From the NCBI GenBank assembly GCA_030696105.1, contig JAUYNJ010000001.1:66747-130746 (forward strand): a DNA stretch of 64,000 nt, in the 5' to 3' direction. The position numbers and the translations under genes were made by a program. The stretch is from a bacterium (GTDB lineage Bacteria; Patescibacteriota; Patescibacteriia; Patescibacteriales; UBA12465). The stretch's first letter is position 1; each line of letters starts with the position of its first letter. The notes under the pieces were generated by a model that was not told the DNA's origin, made no database searches, and was given only the letters and a program-made list of their open reading frames with translations. Below are positions 29,260 to 55,594 of this stretch, one piece after another.

Positions 29260-30224
29260 TATTCCTCCTCCATGGCGCAGACTCTTTTCGTCGCCGACAA
29301 AAACTGAATGAACTGAAAAGTCGTTTTATGGCCGCGGTTGATAGCCTCGGTCAGAGTTTGATTGTTATCGATGGTAAAACGACTGATGCGCGGGAACTGC
29401 AAGACAAAATTAGTGCCGGTTCTTTGTTCACTAAGAAAAGAATGATTGTGATTGAAGATATTTTTCAGAACAAAAGTGAAACCGTTTTCACCTCCCTTCT
29501 TACACTCTGTGAAAAGCATGCCGGCGCTGAAGATAACGCCATTATTTTTAACGAAGGTGAAATTGCACCAACGAAAATAAAAGCGGACGCTAAAAAACTT
29601 TTTGCCTGGTTACAGAAACAACCCTTCGTTCAAGAATTTAAACCCCTTAACAACAGTCAAGTTATTGATTACGCCAAGAAAGCTATCACTGCGAAGGGTG
29701 GACAAATTAGTCCTGGCGCCTTATCGTTACTCATTACTAGAACCGGCAATGATCTGTGGCGACTTGATAATGAAATCTCAAAACTGGTGGCCGCCAGCTC
29801 TGGAAAAATAATCGACAACGCCCTGGTGCTTGATTTAGTGAAAGGTGAAGTTGAAGATAATATCTTTGCTCTCACTGATGCGCTTGGCAGTAAAAACAGT
29901 AATACTGCTCTCCAGCTACTCGAAGAACAGTTTGCTGCTGGTTTAAGTGCTGAATATTTACTTGCGATGTTTCAAAGGCAGTTTAAAATAATGCTGCAGA
30001 TAAAAACAATTCAGGCAGCAGAACGTCTTAGTGAAGCGCAAATTGCTACTAAACTAAAGCTCCATCCATTTGTCGTTAAGAAGAGTCTATCCCAAAGCAG
30101 TCGCTTCACACTCGTTGAGCTGCAAAACGGCCTTGAACGACTCCTCAAGCTTGATTATCTCAATAAGCAAGGACGAGCTGATATTAAAAGCGAACTTTAC
30201 GTGATAGTGGCTTCACTGCGCTAA
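29256..30224 (+). CDS. holA: DNA polymerase III delta subunit
   Basis: The N-terminus MIFLLHGADSFRRRQKL and overall HolA-like layout fit. The ATGA start overlaps the murI stop. Confidence 0.75.
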   Translation: MIFLLHGADSFRRRQKLNELKSRFMAAVDSLGQSLIVIDGKTTDARELQDKISAGSLFTKKRMIVIEDIFQNKSETVFTSLLTLCEKHAGAEDNAIIFNEGEIAPTKIKADAKKLFAWLQKQPFVQEFKPLNNSQVIDYAKKAITAKGGQISPGALSLLITRTGNDLWRLDNEISKLVAASSGKIIDNALVLDLVKGEVEDNIFALTDALGSKNSNTALQLLEEQFAAGLSAEYLLAMFQRQFKIMLQIKTIQAAERLSEAQIATKLKLHPFVVKKSLSQSSRFTLVELQNGLERLLKLDYLNKQGRADIKSELYVIVASLR

Positions 30225-30327
30225 ATAAATGGCCTAAAATAACTCTTGCTTTTTTGTTTGCCTTCTGTTATATTTTAGCAAGAAGTTGCCGAAAACTTAT
30301 TTTTTAGTGTTACTTTTGGAAAATAAA

Positions 30328-30401
30328 GGGCAATTAGCTCAGTTGGTTAGAGCGCAACACTGATAATGTTGAGGTCGGAGGTTCGAATCCTCCATTGCCC
30401 A
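30328..30401 (+). tRNA. tRNA-Ile (anticodon GAT)
   Basis: A manual cloverleaf fits: GGGCAAT...ATTGCCC acceptor, anticodon loop CTGATAA, T-loop GGTTCGAATCC. Confidence 0.9.
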
Positions 30402-30426
30402 CCTCATAATTAAAATCTTAAATGAT

Positions 30427-30499
30427 CGCGGGATAGAGCAGTTGGCAGCTCGCCAGGCCCATAACCTGGAGGTCGCTGGTTCGAATCCAGCTCCCGCAA
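30427..30499 (+). tRNA. initiator tRNA-fMet (anticodon CAT)
   Basis: The gene starts CGCGGG and ends CCCGCAA, giving the C1:A72 mismatch typical of bacterial initiators. The anticodon loop is CCCATAA. Confidence 0.8.
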
Positions 30500-30512
30500 C
30501 TAGTTAGAGAGA

Positions 30513-30831
30513 GCCTCGGTAGCTCAGTGGTAGAGCAAAGGACTGAATTTCGGTCCGCCCATTGGAAACGGTGGGATGAAAATCGGGTGAATTCGGGGAA
30601 GCCTTAAGCTATTAGCAAAGGTAATCCCGAGCCAAGTTTTGGTCGGGTTTAAGACCAAAAAAGGTGTAGAGACTAGCGGGTGAGCCCAACAATAACCCCG
30701 CCGCGAGCGCCCGACTCCGCCCTTTATTCAATCAGAATAAAACGGAGATGATATAGTCCAATCCTTAGGGAAACCTAAGCTCTGATATAGGAAAATCCTT
30801 GTGTCGTCAGTTCGATTCTGACCCGGGGCAC
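30513..30831 (+). tRNA. tRNA-Phe (anticodon GAA) interrupted by a group I intron between positions 33 and 34
   Basis: Exon 1 (30513-30544, GCCTCGGTAGCTCAGTGGTAGAGCAAAGGACT) and exon 2 (30792-30831, GAAAATCCTTGTGTCGTCAGTTCGATTCTGACCCGGGGCA) join into a canonical tRNA-Phe cloverleaf. Confidence 0.85.
30545..30791 (+). ncRNA. group I intron (IC3-like) in the tRNA-Phe anticodon loop
   Basis: The 5' exon ends in U, which pairs as G.U in P1 (exon GGACU with internal guide GGUCC). The intron ends in G. Core blocks AAUUCGGGGAAGCCUUAAGC, GAGCCAAG and AAGGUGUAGAGACUAG resemble the Azoarcus/cyanobacterial tRNA introns as I recall them. Confidence 0.8.
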
Positions 30832-31173
30832 AAAAGCGTTAGACAAAAGAATGAACCCATGATAAATTGACTACGTAGGGTTCATTTTTTTACGAGAAGC
30901 GATAAATTAGAGGCAATTGAATTAAGGAAAAGGGGGTTCACTTACAGTCAAATAAGCGACAAGCTTGGCGTAGCCAAAAGCACGCTCAGCGTTTGGCTAA
31001 AAGATCTTATCATCGACGAGTCGTCAGCAAATAAGATAAGAAGTCATATTTTTTCAACGCGAATTTCAAAGTTAATAGAAAGAAATAAAGAGCGCTCATT
31101 AATTACGAAAGAAGGACACGCTAGAATTCGCTCTCAAGCATTCCTAGAAGCCAGCAAATACTATAAAGACCCC

Positions 31174-31578
31174 TTGTTTATAACCGGATTAGCATTGTAC
31201 TGGGGAGAAGGTTACAAAAAGGGCGCACTCGGCAGCAAATGGAAGAGCATCGATTTTACTAATGCTGATCCGTCGATGATAGTAGTAATATTAAAATTCT
31301 TTCGCAAGTACCTACCAATTCAGAATTCTGACATAACAATACAAGTAATGCTGCATAGCCCTAAGGTCGAGAAAGCGTGTATTGAATACTGGAAATCAGT
31401 CACCGGCTTAGACAGAACAAGCTTTATTAAAACTTGTTTTGTTATTAGCAAGTCTAGTAAAAAAATTGTAAAGAGCAAGCTTGCAAATGGAACCATTCAT
31501 GTTAGAATAAATAACGTTAAGCACTTTTTTAGATTAATAGGATGGATTGACTTTCTAAAGAAAAAGATGGAAGATTAA
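31174..31578 (+). CDS. LAGLIDADG-like/HTH homing-endonuclease-like protein, possibly a pseudogene or using a non-canonical start
   Basis: The ORF contains GLALYWGEGYKKG. The same frame is open upstream from about 30869 and encodes an HTH (RKRGFTYSQISDKLGVAKSTLSVWLKD), but no ATG/GTG/TTG occurs before TTG 31174. Confidence 0.45.
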   Translation: MFITGLALYWGEGYKKGALGSKWKSIDFTNADPSMIVVILKFFRKYLPIQNSDITIQVMLHSPKVEKACIEYWKSVTGLDRTSFIKTCFVISKSSKKIVKSKLANGTIHVRINNVKHFFRLIGWIDFLKKKMED

Positions 31579-31585
31579 ATATTAT

Positions 31586-31659
31586 CGGGGTATGGCCTAA
31601 TTGGCTAGGGCGCCTGCTTTGGGAGCAGGAGATTCTGGGTTCAAGTCCCAGTACCCCGA
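31586..31659 (+). tRNA. tRNA-Pro (anticodon TGG)
   Basis: A manual cloverleaf fits: CGGGGTA...TACCCCG acceptor, anticodon loop TTTGGGA, T-loop GGTTCAAGTCC. Confidence 0.9.
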
Positions 31660-31677
31660 CGAGTGAAACGAGGAGAG
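31642..31677 (+). repeat. 36-bp direct repeat, copy 1 (3' end of tRNA-Pro plus 18 nt downstream)
   Basis: caagtcccagtaccccgacGagtgaaacgaggagag recurs at 31829-31864 with one mismatch. Confidence 0.9.
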
Positions 31678-31828
31678 GTAAGCAAGCCACCTGCGTGGCT
31701 TGCGTCTGGGATTTGAAAGCCGGAGCGATATGCGGAACGAAAGTGACGCATCGCGAGGCCGGGTCGGGGCGCTTAGTGAGCGAAGTTCGCGATTTTAGCG
31801 AACAAGCGAGACCTCTAGCGACCGTGAC

Positions 31829-51473: not shown

Positions 51474-51662
51474 AATGGTGTCTTTTGGTTCCACCCCAAT
51501 TTATATTAAGGTGGATATTTTGTTGTGTCTTTGAAAGACAAAAGTGTGGGAAAATCAAACGACTTATTAGTACTGCTCCGCTCAATCCATTACTGGACTT
51601 ACACGTACAGCCTATCAAGGTCATATTCTGTAACCAGTCTGTGAAACCTAATCTTAGAGACA

Positions 51663-51693
<31 letters not shown>

Positions 51694-51840
51694 TTAACCG
51701 AAGGTAGCTACCCTGCAATGCCCTTGGTAGAACAGCAGGTACACTAGAGCTTCGTCCTTCCCGGTCCTCTCGTACTAAGGAAGGGCCTCTTCAAGTTTCC
51801 ACGACCACAGTGGATAGGAGACCGACCTGTCTTACGACGG

Positions 51841-51893
<53 letters not shown>

Positions 51894-51903
51894 GCTTCTC
51901 CAC

Positions 51904-51936
<33 letters not shown>

Positions 51937-52424
51937 GAACCAGGTCGTCGATGTGGACTCTTGGACCTGACTAGCCTGTTATCCCCGGAGTAGCTTTTAT
52001 CCGATGAGCTTCCACCATCCTATATTGAATGGTCGGATCACTAAGTTCCGCTTTCGCGACTGCTTGACCGGTAAGTCTCGCAGTAAAGCTGGCTTGTGCC
52101 TTTACACTATCTCCCGGGTTTCCATTCCGGGATAGCCAACCTTTGTAAACGCCTCCGTTACATTTTGGGAGGCATCCGCCCCAGACAAACTACCCACCAG
52201 ACACTGTCCCTCGTAAAAACGAGGTTAGAATTAAAAATATACAAGGGTGGTATCTCACTGGCGCCCGAAGGCTCCCACCTATTCTGAACATGCATATCCC
52301 TAATTCAATATCAAGCTGTAGTAAAGCTTCACGGGGTCTTTTCGTCCGACTGTGGTTAACGAGCATCTTTACTCGTCTTGCAATTTCACCGAGTCCTTCG
52401 CTGAGACAGTGCTCAAGTGGTTAA

Positions 52425-52467
<43 letters not shown>

Positions 52468-53204
52468 CTTCACTTACTTAATATTTCTATTAAGAATGGA
52501 CTTTATCTTACTCGTGACATGAATCTAACGCCCGCAAGACTGATTGAGCGCAAATTTTATTTTGCCTGTTCATTCTCGAAGCGATAGCGATAATGTCTTT
52601 AATACCTTCAGCAGAAAGATGCTTGCCGGCATTCATTATCTGTATAATCTCCTTAAATTTGAAATAATCAAATTTCTTTTGAGTTAAAAGCGGATATTTG
52701 TCGAAATGAGGAATGACAAATTTATTCATATGCTCTAACGATCTTATTCTAAGCTCCTGACGTGTATCATGATTAATCCTGACAACGCCAGCGCCGAAAT
52801 ATGTTTTAAGCGCATACAACACTTTAATATCCTTCTCATGCTGGACAACTCTAAATTCTGGTAATACTTGATAACCGGACTTCATTGAATCATTATGATT
52901 AATTCCAACATAGAAAGTTCCCTCACCATCTACAAATCCACTTACCCAATAGGGATTCATTTGCATATTTTAGAGTCTCAGTTTTTAAGTCTCTGAGGAT
53001 TATTAATCCTGCGCGTTTGCCCCGTGTATTGATAGATTTTTACTGGGGTCGACACCCCGAGTACTATCAATCTTTTGAGGATTTTCACGCATTTTACTGA
53101 GTATTTTAGACAACCATGGCTTTCGCCATAGCTAGGCAACGAACTTTGTTATTTATCAATTTATAATCGTCCCAGTCTTTTGCGGTCTAGTAATAAACCA
53201 CAAA
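52468..53204 (-). mobile_element. group I-like intron in 23S rRNA carrying a homing endonuclease gene
   Basis: The insertion splits the universally conserved ...ACTATAATCGTCCTAAGGT | AGCGAAATTCCTTGTCGGGTAAGTTCCGACC... The 5' exon ends in U and the intron ends in G. A CAGAGACTT J8/7-like block precedes the ORF. Confidence 0.8.
52508..52966 (-). CDS. single-motif LAGLIDADG homing endonuclease (intron-encoded)
   Basis: WVSGFVDGEGTFYVGI is a LAGLIDADG motif. The 152-aa ORF lies wholly inside the 23S intron. Confidence 0.85.
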   Translation of the reverse strand: MQMNPYWVSGFVDGEGTFYVGINHNDSMKSGYQVLPEFRVVQHEKDIKVLYALKTYFGAGVVRINHDTRQELRIRSLEHMNKFVIPHFDKYPLLTQKKFDYFKFKEIIQIMNAGKHLSAEGIKDIIAIASRMNRQNKICAQSVLRALDSCHE

Positions 53205-55594
53205 ACCTTAGGACGATTATAGTTATCGCCGGCGTTCATCCGCGCTTGGATTCAAAGCTTCGCACCGAAGTGCTAACCTCTCCTCTTAACGTTCGGACAC
53301 TGGCCAGGCTTCACCCTCTATACATCCTCTTGCGAGTTAGCAGAGAGCTGTGTTTTTGATAAACAGTCCCTTGAGCTCTTTAGCTGCGGCCCTGCTTGCG
53401 CAGGGCAGGCCTTATCTCGAAATTACGGCCGCTGTTTTGCCGAGTTCCTTAGCGAAGGTTCTCTCGTACACCTTAGGCTTCTCGCCTCGTCTACCTGTGT
53501 CGGTTTACGGTACGGTTACTGTGCCCTTAGCCCTAGAAGTTTTTCTCGTCGATTCCGCTACTTGATTGAATCCGTCTTGCGACTTCATCTTTAGGCTGAA
53601 TCTTGAAGCTGTTGGCCCGGATTTGCCTAGGCCGCTTCTTGAAACCACCAGCGGACATACCATAGCCCGCTCAAACTTTGGAACCGCGTCCCTCCTTCGG
53701 AAAAACACAGTAGTACTGGAATATTAACCAGCTCTTCCATCGGTTACACTAACACTACATTAGTTACACCTTAGGACCGACTAACCCTGGGTCGATTCTC
53801 GTTGCCCAGGAAACCTTAGACTTTCGGTGGGCGGGATTTTTACCCGCCTTTTTGCTACTCATGCCAACATTCTCACTTCTCTCCGCTCCACCGGGCCTCA
53901 CGGCACGACTTCAACGCTGAAGAGAATGCTCCTCTACCACTCTCCAGATTTTTAGTTTCTATCGGTACTGCACTTCGAGCTCCCTAACGTAAATTTAGGG
54001 CTCGGTTACTGCGATAAAAAACAAAAATCTGGAGAGTTCACATCTTCGGTACTATACTTAGCCCCGGTAAATTTTCGGCGCGAAACAACTTGATTAGTGA
54101 GCTATTACGCTATCTTTAAAGGATGGCTGCTTCTAAGCCAACCTCCTAACTGTCGTAGTCACAACACCACCTTTTACACTTAGTATAGATTTGGGGACCT
54201 TAGATTGTGATCTGGGCTGTTTCCCTTTAGACCAATGAACCTTAGCGCCCATGGTCTGACTCCCGAGCTACACCAATGGGTATTCGGAGTTTGATTGAAG
54301 ACGGTATCTTGCGACCCGCCCTCATCCAGTGCTCTACCCCCCACTGTCAGCGCTCGAGGCTAGTCCAAAAACTATTTCGAGGAGAACCAGCTATTGCCGA
54401 GTTCGATTACAATTTCTGCGCTAACCACATCTCATCCCCGAGTGTTGCACGGCTCGTGGGTTCGGTCCTTCCTTTATCTTTCGACAAAGTTCAACCTGGA
54501 CATGGTTAGATCACCCGGCTTCGGGTCTTGTCCATGCGACGTGTACTTCACCTTAACGCACTAAATAAATTTAATGCGTAAAAGTGAAGCACAATGCGGG
54601 CTATTAACCCTCGCTTTCACTACACATACTCTCCGGAGGAGATTATGTAAGCCACATAGAACAAACTCGTTGGCTCATTCTTCAATAGGCACGCCGTCAC
54701 CCAATAAATTGGGCTCCGACTCTTTGTAAGTATATGGTTTCAGGTACTATTTCACCTCCCTCTCGGGATGCTTTTCACCTTTCCCTCACGGTACTGGTTC
54801 ACTATCGATCATAAGAAATATTTAGCCTTGGGTCATAGTCGACCCTGATTCATACGGGATTTCACGAGGCCCGCACTACTTAAGAACAACGCTGCAGAGA
54901 CTTAATTCTTTTCGCTTACAGGGCTATCACCTTCTCTGGCAGAGCTTTCCAGCTCGCTTTTGCTAAGAATTAAATTTTATGACTCTACTCCGTCCAATCT
55001 AGAGGACAGACACGTTGCCTTGCAACCCCTGCGGAACATATAGCTCTAGAACTTTCTGATTTCTCCCTAGTAAACTAGTTCGAAATCTCAGTTCGGCAGG
55101 TTTAGGCTCTTCCCCGTTCGCTCGCCACTACTAGGAGAATCACTATTGTTTTCTTTTCCTCCGGCTACTAAGATGTTTCAGTTCGCCGGGTCTTCCACCG
55201 AGTCCAAAAGAGGTCTCGGTTACCGCGTTATCGACGCGGCGGGTTTCCCCATTCGGAGATCTGCGGGTCAAAGGTTGCTTGCCACCTCACCGCAGCTTAT
55301 CGCAGGCTGCTACGTCCTTCATCGGTTTCTTATGTCTAGGCATCCGCCATATACTCTTTACGAGATTTTCCCACACTCTTGCTTTCAAAAGTGTCACGCA
55401 TTCCTTCGCGAATGCGATTTTTTTTGTCTTCGCCCGGAAATTGCAAAATAAACCGGCGACAGACAGTTCGCTTTTTCGAAAAAAAAGCGACAAAAAGATA
55501 TTTAAGTGTTAACGAGCAATTAAACATTCGTTGCCATTACCAGCGAACTGATAAGGGCGAGTAAATATTTAATTCGTATATTTATTTTAGAGGT

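Follow-up and report, generated by a model that had tools for sequence, protein, structure and literature searches.

Computational evidence for an ORF-less group I intron of the Phe.2Ug class in a Patescibacteria tRNA-Phe(GAA) gene

The four classical classes of bacterial tRNA introns have been expanded to 21 (Williams, 2020; bioRxiv 10.1101/2020.01.27.920355), and the seed alignment of that preprint includes a Phe intron class under the name 'Mba55.Phe.2Ug'. Subsequently, an intron between positions 33 and 34 of tRNA-Phe(GAA) was listed for the Doudnabacteria genome GCA_016699995.1 in the available portion of the tables of Nakagawa et al. (2026; PMC13011429). Among the 95 complete Patescibacteria genomes surveyed there it was the single case at Phe 33/34, and none of the Patescibacteria tRNA introns was classified as IC in that work (Nakagawa et al., 2026; PMC13011429). 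Phe goes unmentioned in the preprint version of that paper from 2025. The portion of Table S5 that was available also holds an Elusimicrobiota tRNA-Phe(GAA) intron at 31/32, labelled IA3 (PMC13011429). Among related introns, those residing in tRNA-Asn and in tRNA-Asp underwent precise self-splicing in vitro, including a Patescibacteria tRNA-Asn homologue whose P7.1 hairpin loop is the same as in the intron described here (PMC13011429). The initial annotation of the present locus regarded both the Phe host and this lineage as unusual, a view that is outdated, since host, site and lineage are already documented by Williams (2020) and Nakagawa et al. (2026), and our own scan recovered the arrangement in at least 49 genomes.

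The + strand of the window, a stretch of DNA of 64 kb, contains a group of tRNA genes (all intron coordinates below refer to this strand), in which tRNA-Ile(GAU) at 30328-30403 and tRNA-Met(CAU) at 30427-30500 are followed by a split tRNA-Phe(GAA) at 30513-30831. The split gene was called by ARAGORN with the intron search on, giving an intron of 246 nt, and was missed by default ARAGORN without intron search. The search with the Rfam model RF00028 (Intron_gpI) that had been proposed earlier gave a match at 30536-30780 (+) that spans the full model (1-253) and scores 82.7 bits, well over the gathering score of 50, with an E-value of 1.6e-19. Together with the ARAGORN call, the conserved site and the wobble pair in P1, this match bears out the original proposal of a group I intron in tRNA-Phe(GAA) between U33 and G34. 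Taking the evidence below as a whole, we consider that 30513-30831 is a Patescibacteria (CPR) tRNA-Phe(GAA) gene with a 246-nt ORF-less group I intron of the Phe.2Ug class, spliced as proposed here and inherited vertically, with a probability of about 0.9. A chance match or an ARAGORN 'ghost exon' was ruled out by the Rfam E-value, by covariation and by the existence of intron-less homologues. No other tRNA-Phe was found within the 64-kb window, and a promoter and terminator consensus scan of 30100-31700 gave nothing above shuffled expectation, the loop of the hairpin after the tRNA exceeding the range of the scanner.

The 5' exon (30513-30544) comprises the acceptor and D arms, the 5' half of the anticodon stem, C32 and U33, as supported by the ARAGORN split call and the spliced product, and its last base, U30544, is paired with G30552. 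The intron extends over 30545-30790, its boundaries being set by ARAGORN together with the requirement that a U precede the 5' splice site and that the intron end in G, and the 3' exon (30791-30831) runs from G34, A35 and A36 to the discriminator A73 (30830) plus one C; the CCA end is not encoded in the gene. Because a G is repeated, the placement of the splice sites is ambiguous by 1 nt, and the sites 30544|30545 and 30790|30791 were chosen on the basis of the U before the 5' site and the G at the intron end. The alternative of a splice site after G34 (intron 30546-30791) was ruled out by four relatives (L019, L039, L070 and L073) whose introns start with A and are compatible with the U33|G34 placement only. 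Excision of 30545-30790 yields a canonical tRNA-Phe(GAA) cloverleaf with the anticodon loop CUGAAAA and the variable loop GUGUC, and the predicted ligated exons read ...GGACU|GAAAAUCC... at the junction. The earlier statement that removing 30545-30791 restores tRNA-Phe was thus right about the canonical product and its GUGUC variable loop, but placed the end one base too far: with that excision the anticodon loop shrinks to 6 nt and ARAGORN no longer calls a tRNA-Phe. The claim that the intron ends in G stands, and this terminal G (omega G, G30790) is invariant in the 51 homologues aligned. No ORF of at least 60 aa lies inside the intron, and none of the listed ORFs falls within 30225-31173.

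The secondary structure was examined on an alignment of 51 sequences, namely the window, 49 loci recovered by our scan and the published Doudnabacteria intron. RNAalifold recovered P1, P2, P3, P4, P6a, an extra hairpin, P8 and P9, with compensatory changes in 38 of 50 pairs, and the full structure was then drawn from the window sequence, adding P5, P5a, P6, P8a and the P7 pseudoknot. Standard pairs occupied 91.0% of the helix cells (P1-P9), vs. 32-48% when the 3' partners were slid by 1-3 columns, a control that favours the structure, since this was drawn from the window sequence, and that was run on an alignment partly shaped by sequence conservation. Compensatory change was present in 54 of 73 pairs, and the observed values were reached by none of 500 shuffles; P3, P4, P6, P6a and P8 are among the helices with such changes across the 51 sequences. 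The core helices P3-P8 that define group I introns, including the P3/P7 pseudoknot, are all present. Folded alone, the window intron reached -86.2 kcal/mol (z = -3.4), with a minimum free energy (MFE) structure that reproduces the helices; every helix of this copy is intact with standard pairs and all invariant core positions are kept.

P1 (30540-30556) joins the exon segment GGACU (30540-30544) to the internal guide GGUCC (30552-30556), with the U30544.G30552 wobble at the splice site, exactly as first described. The U.G pair is invariant across the 51 sequences, two other P1 pairs covary (A-U/C-G, 38:13; C-G/U-A, 50:1), and the guide tracks the exon in the combinations GGACU/GGUCC, CGCCU or GGCCU/GGGCC, and GGAUU/GAUCC. 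The P10 guide AAUUUC (30546-30551) pairs with GAAAAU (30791-30796), the bases with which the 3' exon opens. It forms 4-6 pairs in the 50 sequences with G34 and changes with tRNA position 37 (UUUUC/GAAAA vs. UCUUC/GAAGA), so that the guide of P1 and P10 covaries with both exons, including tRNA positions 31, 32 and 37. The remaining sequence is L108, in which the first P10 pair is lost; here an A replaces G34 after the terminal G, giving the anticodon AAA and a damaged junction.

Downstream of P1, the P2 hairpin (30558-30575) has 7 bp, all with compensatory changes, and a GAAA tetraloop (30565-30568), and is also found in the MFE fold. The 5' strand of P3, UCGGGUG (30583-30589), pairs with CGCCCGA (30708-30714), this 3' strand being placed by the 51-sequence structure test, with 98.9% of cells paired and compensatory changes in 4 of 7 pairs. 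The region 30593-30630 contains P4 (30593-98/30625-30), P5 (30601-05/30618-22) and P5a (30608-10/30614-16); P4-P5 agrees with the Rfam alignment, and all three helices also appear in the single-sequence fold. P6 (30631-33/30663-65) and P6a (30637-44/30653-60) occupy 30631-30665, with compensatory changes in all 8 pairs of P6a, whose loop (30645-52) reads GGGUUUAA. The 5' strand of P7, GAGACUA (30669-30675, with A30670 bulged), pairs with UAGUCC (30754-30759), in agreement with the Rfam consensus AGACUA...UAGUC; all 6 pairs are invariant in the 51 sequences, and P7 therefore offers no covariation evidence of its own. This helix would constitute the guanosine-binding site. J8/7 (AUGAUA) and the P7 3' strand together span 30748-30759, within the conserved block GAUGAUAUAGUCC. 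P8 (30715-19/30743-47) and its extension P8a (30723-29/30735-41) cover 30715-30747, show compensatory changes in 4 of 5 and 7 of 7 pairs, respectively, and are present in the MFE fold, whereas the last helix, P9 (30764-30779), is a 6-bp hairpin with a GAAA tetraloop (30770-30773), compensatory changes in all 6 pairs and 98% of cells paired. The four internal sequence blocks quoted in the initial annotation are present by direct reading, and motif searches agree.

The extra hairpin, here called P7.1, lies between P7 and P3' at 30676-30701 (26 nt), with the stem GCGGG/CCCGC and the 16-nt loop UGAGCCCAACAAUAAC; in the Rfam alignment it corresponds to a 30-nt insertion between the P7 5' strand and P3'. 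The additional sequence of about 90 nt previously described as an insertion after the core is therefore inside it, and consists of this one extra hairpin, then P3', and a standard helix, P8, that is longer than usual. The P7.1 stem covaries (GCGGG/CCCGC, GCAGG/CCUGC and UAGG/CCUA; at one pair, A-U in 25 sequences and G-C in 15, and similarly elsewhere). Of the 51 Phe introns, 42 retain the 16-nt loop, (G)UGAG(U)CCCAACAAUAA, the sequence of which also occurs in Patescibacteria tRNA-Asn introns of other genomes. In the other nine Phe introns this position is taken up by a different and longer insert, which, read by eye, may form two hairpins.

Relatives were sought by a pattern scan of a species-representative genome collection, which detected at least 119 loci. 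In at least 49 loci, each from a species-representative genome, ARAGORN called a tRNA-Phe gene interrupted by an intron of 213-266 nt, so that the survey of tRNA-Phe genes in related genomes advised at the outset gave at least 49 loci with an intron at Phe 33/34. The anticodon of the 49 listed loci is GAA in 48 and AAA in one (L108), and all of them, as well as the published Doudnabacteria sequence, share the 33/34 site, the U before the 5' splice site and the terminal G. Patescibacteria lineage names are attached to 36 of the 49, mostly metagenome-assembled genomes (MAGs), and cover Moran-, Falkow-, Magasanik-, Paceibacterota, Saccharibacteria, Gracili-, Peregrini-, Berkel-, Lipton-, Vogel- and Taylorbacteria. 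Seven others are third-party MAGs labelled Gammaproteobacteria or Bdellovibrionales, labels that we doubt because two of these loci (L014 and L101) are 82% identical to the split tRNA-Phe gene of the window and L014 also shares its flanking sequence.

Among the matches listed, the closest precursor tRNAs are those of L084 (87.9%) and L013 (86.7%), both with several kilobases of flank in common with the window at 70-75% identity. Synteny with the window extends to L014, to three loci labelled 'Patescibacteria group' (L059, L090 and L075) and to two from Falkowbacteria (L100 and L065). Since the closest relatives share flanking genes, a Patescibacteria origin and vertical inheritance of the intron within the clade are indicated, and active mobility is unlikely given that the intron holds no ORF; it has no homing endonuclease. 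Moreover, two Moraniibacteriota MAGs (L005 and L057) have an intron-less tRNA-Phe that is identical to the spliced product at 64 of 73 positions (88%), and the anticodon arm of L057 is identical to that of the window. These intron-less genes support the junction and show that some members of the phylum have the intron and others do not. In the same window, but on the - strand, the 23S rRNA gene (51547-55371) is about 900 nt longer than its model and holds an ORF for a 152-aa LAGLIDADG endonuclease at 52508-52966 (PF00961, E-value 6.8e-28), around which two sub-threshold group I signals of 24 bits each were observed.

By sequence, the window intron is a member of the published class, named 'Phe.2Ug' or 'Phe (GAA) 33/34', as indicated by its tRNA-Phe(GAA) host, its insertion at 33/34 and the canonical tRNA-Phe obtained on splicing. 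The Mba55.Phe.2Ug sequence of the seed alignment has the same motifs and hairpin as the window intron. The intron of Doudnabacteria GCA_016699995.1 shares the host, the U33|G34 site, the U before the site, the terminal G, the P1 loop and guide, the core blocks, the hairpin loop GUGAGCCCAACAAUAA and the P3' strand AGCGCCCGAC, and aligns end to end with a score of 208, the highest in our comparison. The two differ in length, the window intron (246 nt) having an extended P8 and a complete hairpin at P9 whereas the Doudnabacteria intron (211 nt) has a shorter P8 and ends in a short 3' tail, and also in the anticodon stem and at position 37 (A37 in the window, G37 in Doudnabacteria), with matching changes in the guide. 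The Patescibacteria tRNA-Asn(GUU) 35/36 intron of GCA_016700035.1, for which self-splicing in vitro has been demonstrated (PMC13011429), has the same overall architecture and P7.1 loop, with 149 matching bases in a global alignment; its host and site (35/36) are different, and consequently so is its guide sequence. The Elusimicrobiota Phe intron, with the same host and another site, is clearly a different intron and scored 107, vs. 166-208 for the hairpin-bearing introns labelled IA1/IA2 and those of Patescibacteria, within the part of the supplement available.

The assignment to a structural subgroup is less straightforward. The locus had been described as IC3-like, and in this reading it would belong to subgroup IC3, as the tRNA-Ile intron of Azoarcus and the cyanobacterial tRNA-Leu intron do, with a lineage-specific peripheral insertion. 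There is indeed a considerable likeness to the IC3 introns of Azoarcus tRNA-Ile(CAU), cyanobacterial tRNA-Leu(UAA) (34/35) and tRNA-fMet (33/34), including the position in the anticodon loop, the lack of an ORF, a small P2-P9 architecture and very similar P3-P4-P6-P7 sequences. In the available part of the labelled sequences from the PMC13011429 supplement, to which the window intron was aligned, the P3-P4-P6-P7 segments AAUUCGGGGAAGCC, GAGCCAAG and AAGGUGUAGAGACU are nearly identical in IC3-labelled introns of Acidobacteriota, Bacteroidota and Cyanobacteriota. For the 5' part up to P7, the scores against these IC3-labelled sequences (83-110) were in the same range as those against hairpin-bearing IA1/IA2-labelled and Patescibacteria introns (92-123). 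After P7, however, similarity to the five IC3-labelled sequences of that set fell to 30-42, against 65-86 for those hairpin-bearing introns.

In the Michel-Westhof scheme, P3' follows P7 directly in IC3 introns, without P7.1 or P7.2. The IC3 tRNA introns compared here pass straight from P7 into P3', whereas the window intron has a conserved, covarying 26-nt hairpin at that point, and P8 differs as well. Besides, the 3' domain is dissimilar: four of the five IC3 examples compared from the accessible sequences have a tail of the GUCCAGACCACAAAC type, which is absent from the window intron, where a simple GAAA-capped P9 is found instead. The presence of one or more extra helices between P7 and P3' is the mark of IA introns, and the hairpin at 30676-30701 corresponds to it; moreover, no Patescibacteria tRNA intron was placed in IC by Nakagawa et al. 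(2026; PMC13011429). Membership of IC3 is thus decidedly unlikely. Judged by these alignments, the description as IC3-like holds for the 5' core only (P3-P7), and beyond P7 the likeness is confined to tRNA introns with an IA1/IA2 label and to those of Patescibacteria.

The conservation of the P7.1 loop may be related to a tertiary contact. Triplet counts were taken from the alignment columns, and in all 38 sequences that have CCC in the P7.1 loop, the P6a loop has GGG on its 5' side. Only three P6a loops lacking GGG were found opposite a P7.1 triplet, in the combinations GAU/AUC (L042), GAG/CUC (L061) and GGU/GCC (L093); they account for three of the four sequences with a hairpin triplet other than CCC, and each combination still pairs. 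Among the nine Phe introns with the different insert, GGG is missing from the P6a loop in eight and present in L106. Other hosts gave pairs of P6a and hairpin loops such as UUAGG/CCUAA (Saccharimonadia Asn), AAGGGC/GCCCUU (Bipolaricaulota Asn) and GGUC/GACC (Bacteroidota Ile2), although the extraction of these loops was crude and noisy. Altogether, the covariation suggests that GGG at 30645-47 in the P6a loop and CCC at 30685-87 in the P7.1 loop probably form a 3-bp loop-loop contact bracing the fold, with moderate support from the three variant Phe sequences and a few sequences from other hosts.

A literature search for a tertiary contact between P6a and P7.1 found nothing relevant, and the contact is possibly undescribed so far; in the Williams (2020) seed alignment (bioRxiv 10.1101/2020.01.27.920355), the hairpin is placed in unaligned insert columns. 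We tentatively suggest, rating the chance as somewhat below even, that P7.1 may be no passive insertion and that the kissing contact may set apart a Patescibacteria-enriched clade of tRNA introns, combining an IC3-like 5' core with an IA-like 3' domain. If true, this contact would explain the conservation of the 16-nt loop across tRNA introns of Phe, Asn and Ile2.

The splicing pathway that we infer from standard group I chemistry, set on the observed sequence, boundaries, conserved structure and class membership, would begin with transcription of the split tRNA-Phe together with the upstream tRNA-Ile and tRNA-Met genes. The intron would fold into P1-P9, and the GAAA tetraloops of P2 and P9 would probably help to brace this fold. 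In P1, GGACU would be held by the guide GGUCC, and the position of the 5' splice site would be given by the U33.G wobble. Attack at this splice site (U33|G34) would come from a free guanosine that occupies the G-C pair of P7 beside the bulged A. The guide (A)AUUUC and the 3' exon GAAAAU would then form P10 while G30790 takes over the G site, and the freed 3'-OH of U33 would attack the 3' splice site, giving the ligated 72-nt tRNA-Phe body, to which CCA would be added afterwards.

Two other views of the function of this intron were considered. Decay can occur in this family, as in L108 with its damaged junction and anticodon AAA, and our view of the genome is limited to 64 kb; the intron could accordingly be a non-splicing relic in a pseudogene copy, with a second intact tRNA-Phe elsewhere doing the work. 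We consider this highly improbable, since all helices of the window copy are intact and its invariant core positions kept, the family is under purifying selection with many compensatory changes, and P1 and P10 track the exon sequence. In addition, the complete Doudnabacteria genome has a single tRNA-Phe gene by each of two tools in the part of the published tables available, and no second copy of the split gene is said to exist for the Asn and Asp introns that were tested (PMC13011429).

The other view accepts a genuine group I intron that would need a host protein, either a chaperone or an aminoacyl-tRNA-synthetase-like cofactor, for efficient splicing in vivo. Many group I introns are protein-assisted. 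Nevertheless, such dependence seems rather unlikely here, considering that the intron keeps two GNRA tetraloops and a putative extra tertiary contact, which are typical of self-sufficient small introns, and that GTP alone is enough for self-splicing in vitro of related Patescibacteria tRNA introns and of the cyanobacterial tRNA-Leu intron (PMC13011429). We infer that the window copy splices, and does so without the help of proteins.

With at least 49 species-level genomes, compared with one case in 95 complete genomes, the Phe 33/34 class is much commoner than the published count suggests. Annotation tools that are blind to introns would make small genomes of this kind seem to be without tRNA-Phe and distort estimates of their completeness, the same point having been made for Asn and Asp by Nakagawa et al. 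(2026; PMC13011429). Besides, the covarying contact between P6a and P7.1 provides a small, testable structural hypothesis for this intron clade. Finally, should this bacterium have no tRNA-Phe gene other than the split one, the ribozyme would be essential to the cell.

In many of the homologues of the split tRNA-Phe(GAA) gene collected in A1, an alignment of 51 sequences comprising the window, 49 loci with a split tRNA-Phe and the published Doudnabacteria intron, P5 reads CCUAAG...UAUGG (columns 76-115), which we take to be a candidate for the classical 11-nt GAAA-tetraloop receptor, and the window carries the variant CCUUAAG...CAAAGG in its place (30601-30622). This receptor-like motif would be compatible with the docking of a GAAA loop from P9 or P2. 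Between P7 and P3' (columns 199-240 of A1), nine Phe 33/34 introns (L007, L016, L018, L019, L067, L073, L091, L105, and L106) carry an insert different from the P7.1 hairpin, beginning with CCCGAAAGGGAGUA, which apparently consists of two hairpins and resembles the insert found in some Asn introns of Paceibacteria. The GGG of the P6a loop, proposed to pair with the P7.1 loop, is absent from eight of these nine introns and is retained in L106.

Downstream of the tRNA-Phe gene, an inverted repeat formed by AAUGAACCC (30850-58) and GGGUUCAUU (30878-86) and followed by a T-run (30850-30891 in all) could represent a terminator, although its 19-nt loop would be unusually long for one; this repeat was not among the calls of the consensus terminator scan. 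Elsewhere in the window, the 23S rRNA gene (51547-55371, minus strand) measures 3825 nt against a model length of 2925 nt. It encloses an ORF of 152 aa for a LAGLIDADG homing endonuclease (52508-52966; PF00961, E 6.8e-28) and two sub-threshold matches to RF00028, the Rfam group I intron model; these span 52841-53164 and 52477-52679 and score about 24 bits, with E-values of 0.003-0.006. The extra length probably corresponds to a divergent group I intron carrying the homing endonuclease, together with smaller expansion segments.

The Phe 33/34 intron was also detected in at least seven third-party MAGs labelled as Gammaproteobacteria or Bdellovibrionales (L014, L020, L026, L076, L101, L102, and L108). 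The split gene of the window is 82% identical to those of at least L014 and L101, and flanking sequence is common to the window and L014; on these sequence comparisons, the taxonomic labels, or the binning of those MAGs, look doubtful. In the homologous split tRNA-Phe of L108 (CAYRJF010000007.1, 400-713), the terminal G is followed by A rather than G, so that splicing would yield the anticodon AAA, and P10 loses its first pair. This change may stem from an error in the assembly or from decay of the gene, or may be some other oddity.

Within the Moraniibacteriota, two MAGs harbor a tRNA-Phe gene devoid of the intron (L005, 5203-5275; L057, 1379-1451), while the intron is present in other MAGs of this group among the matches listed (L009, L010, L061, L063, and L118). 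Therefore, intron presence is variable inside one candidate lineage.
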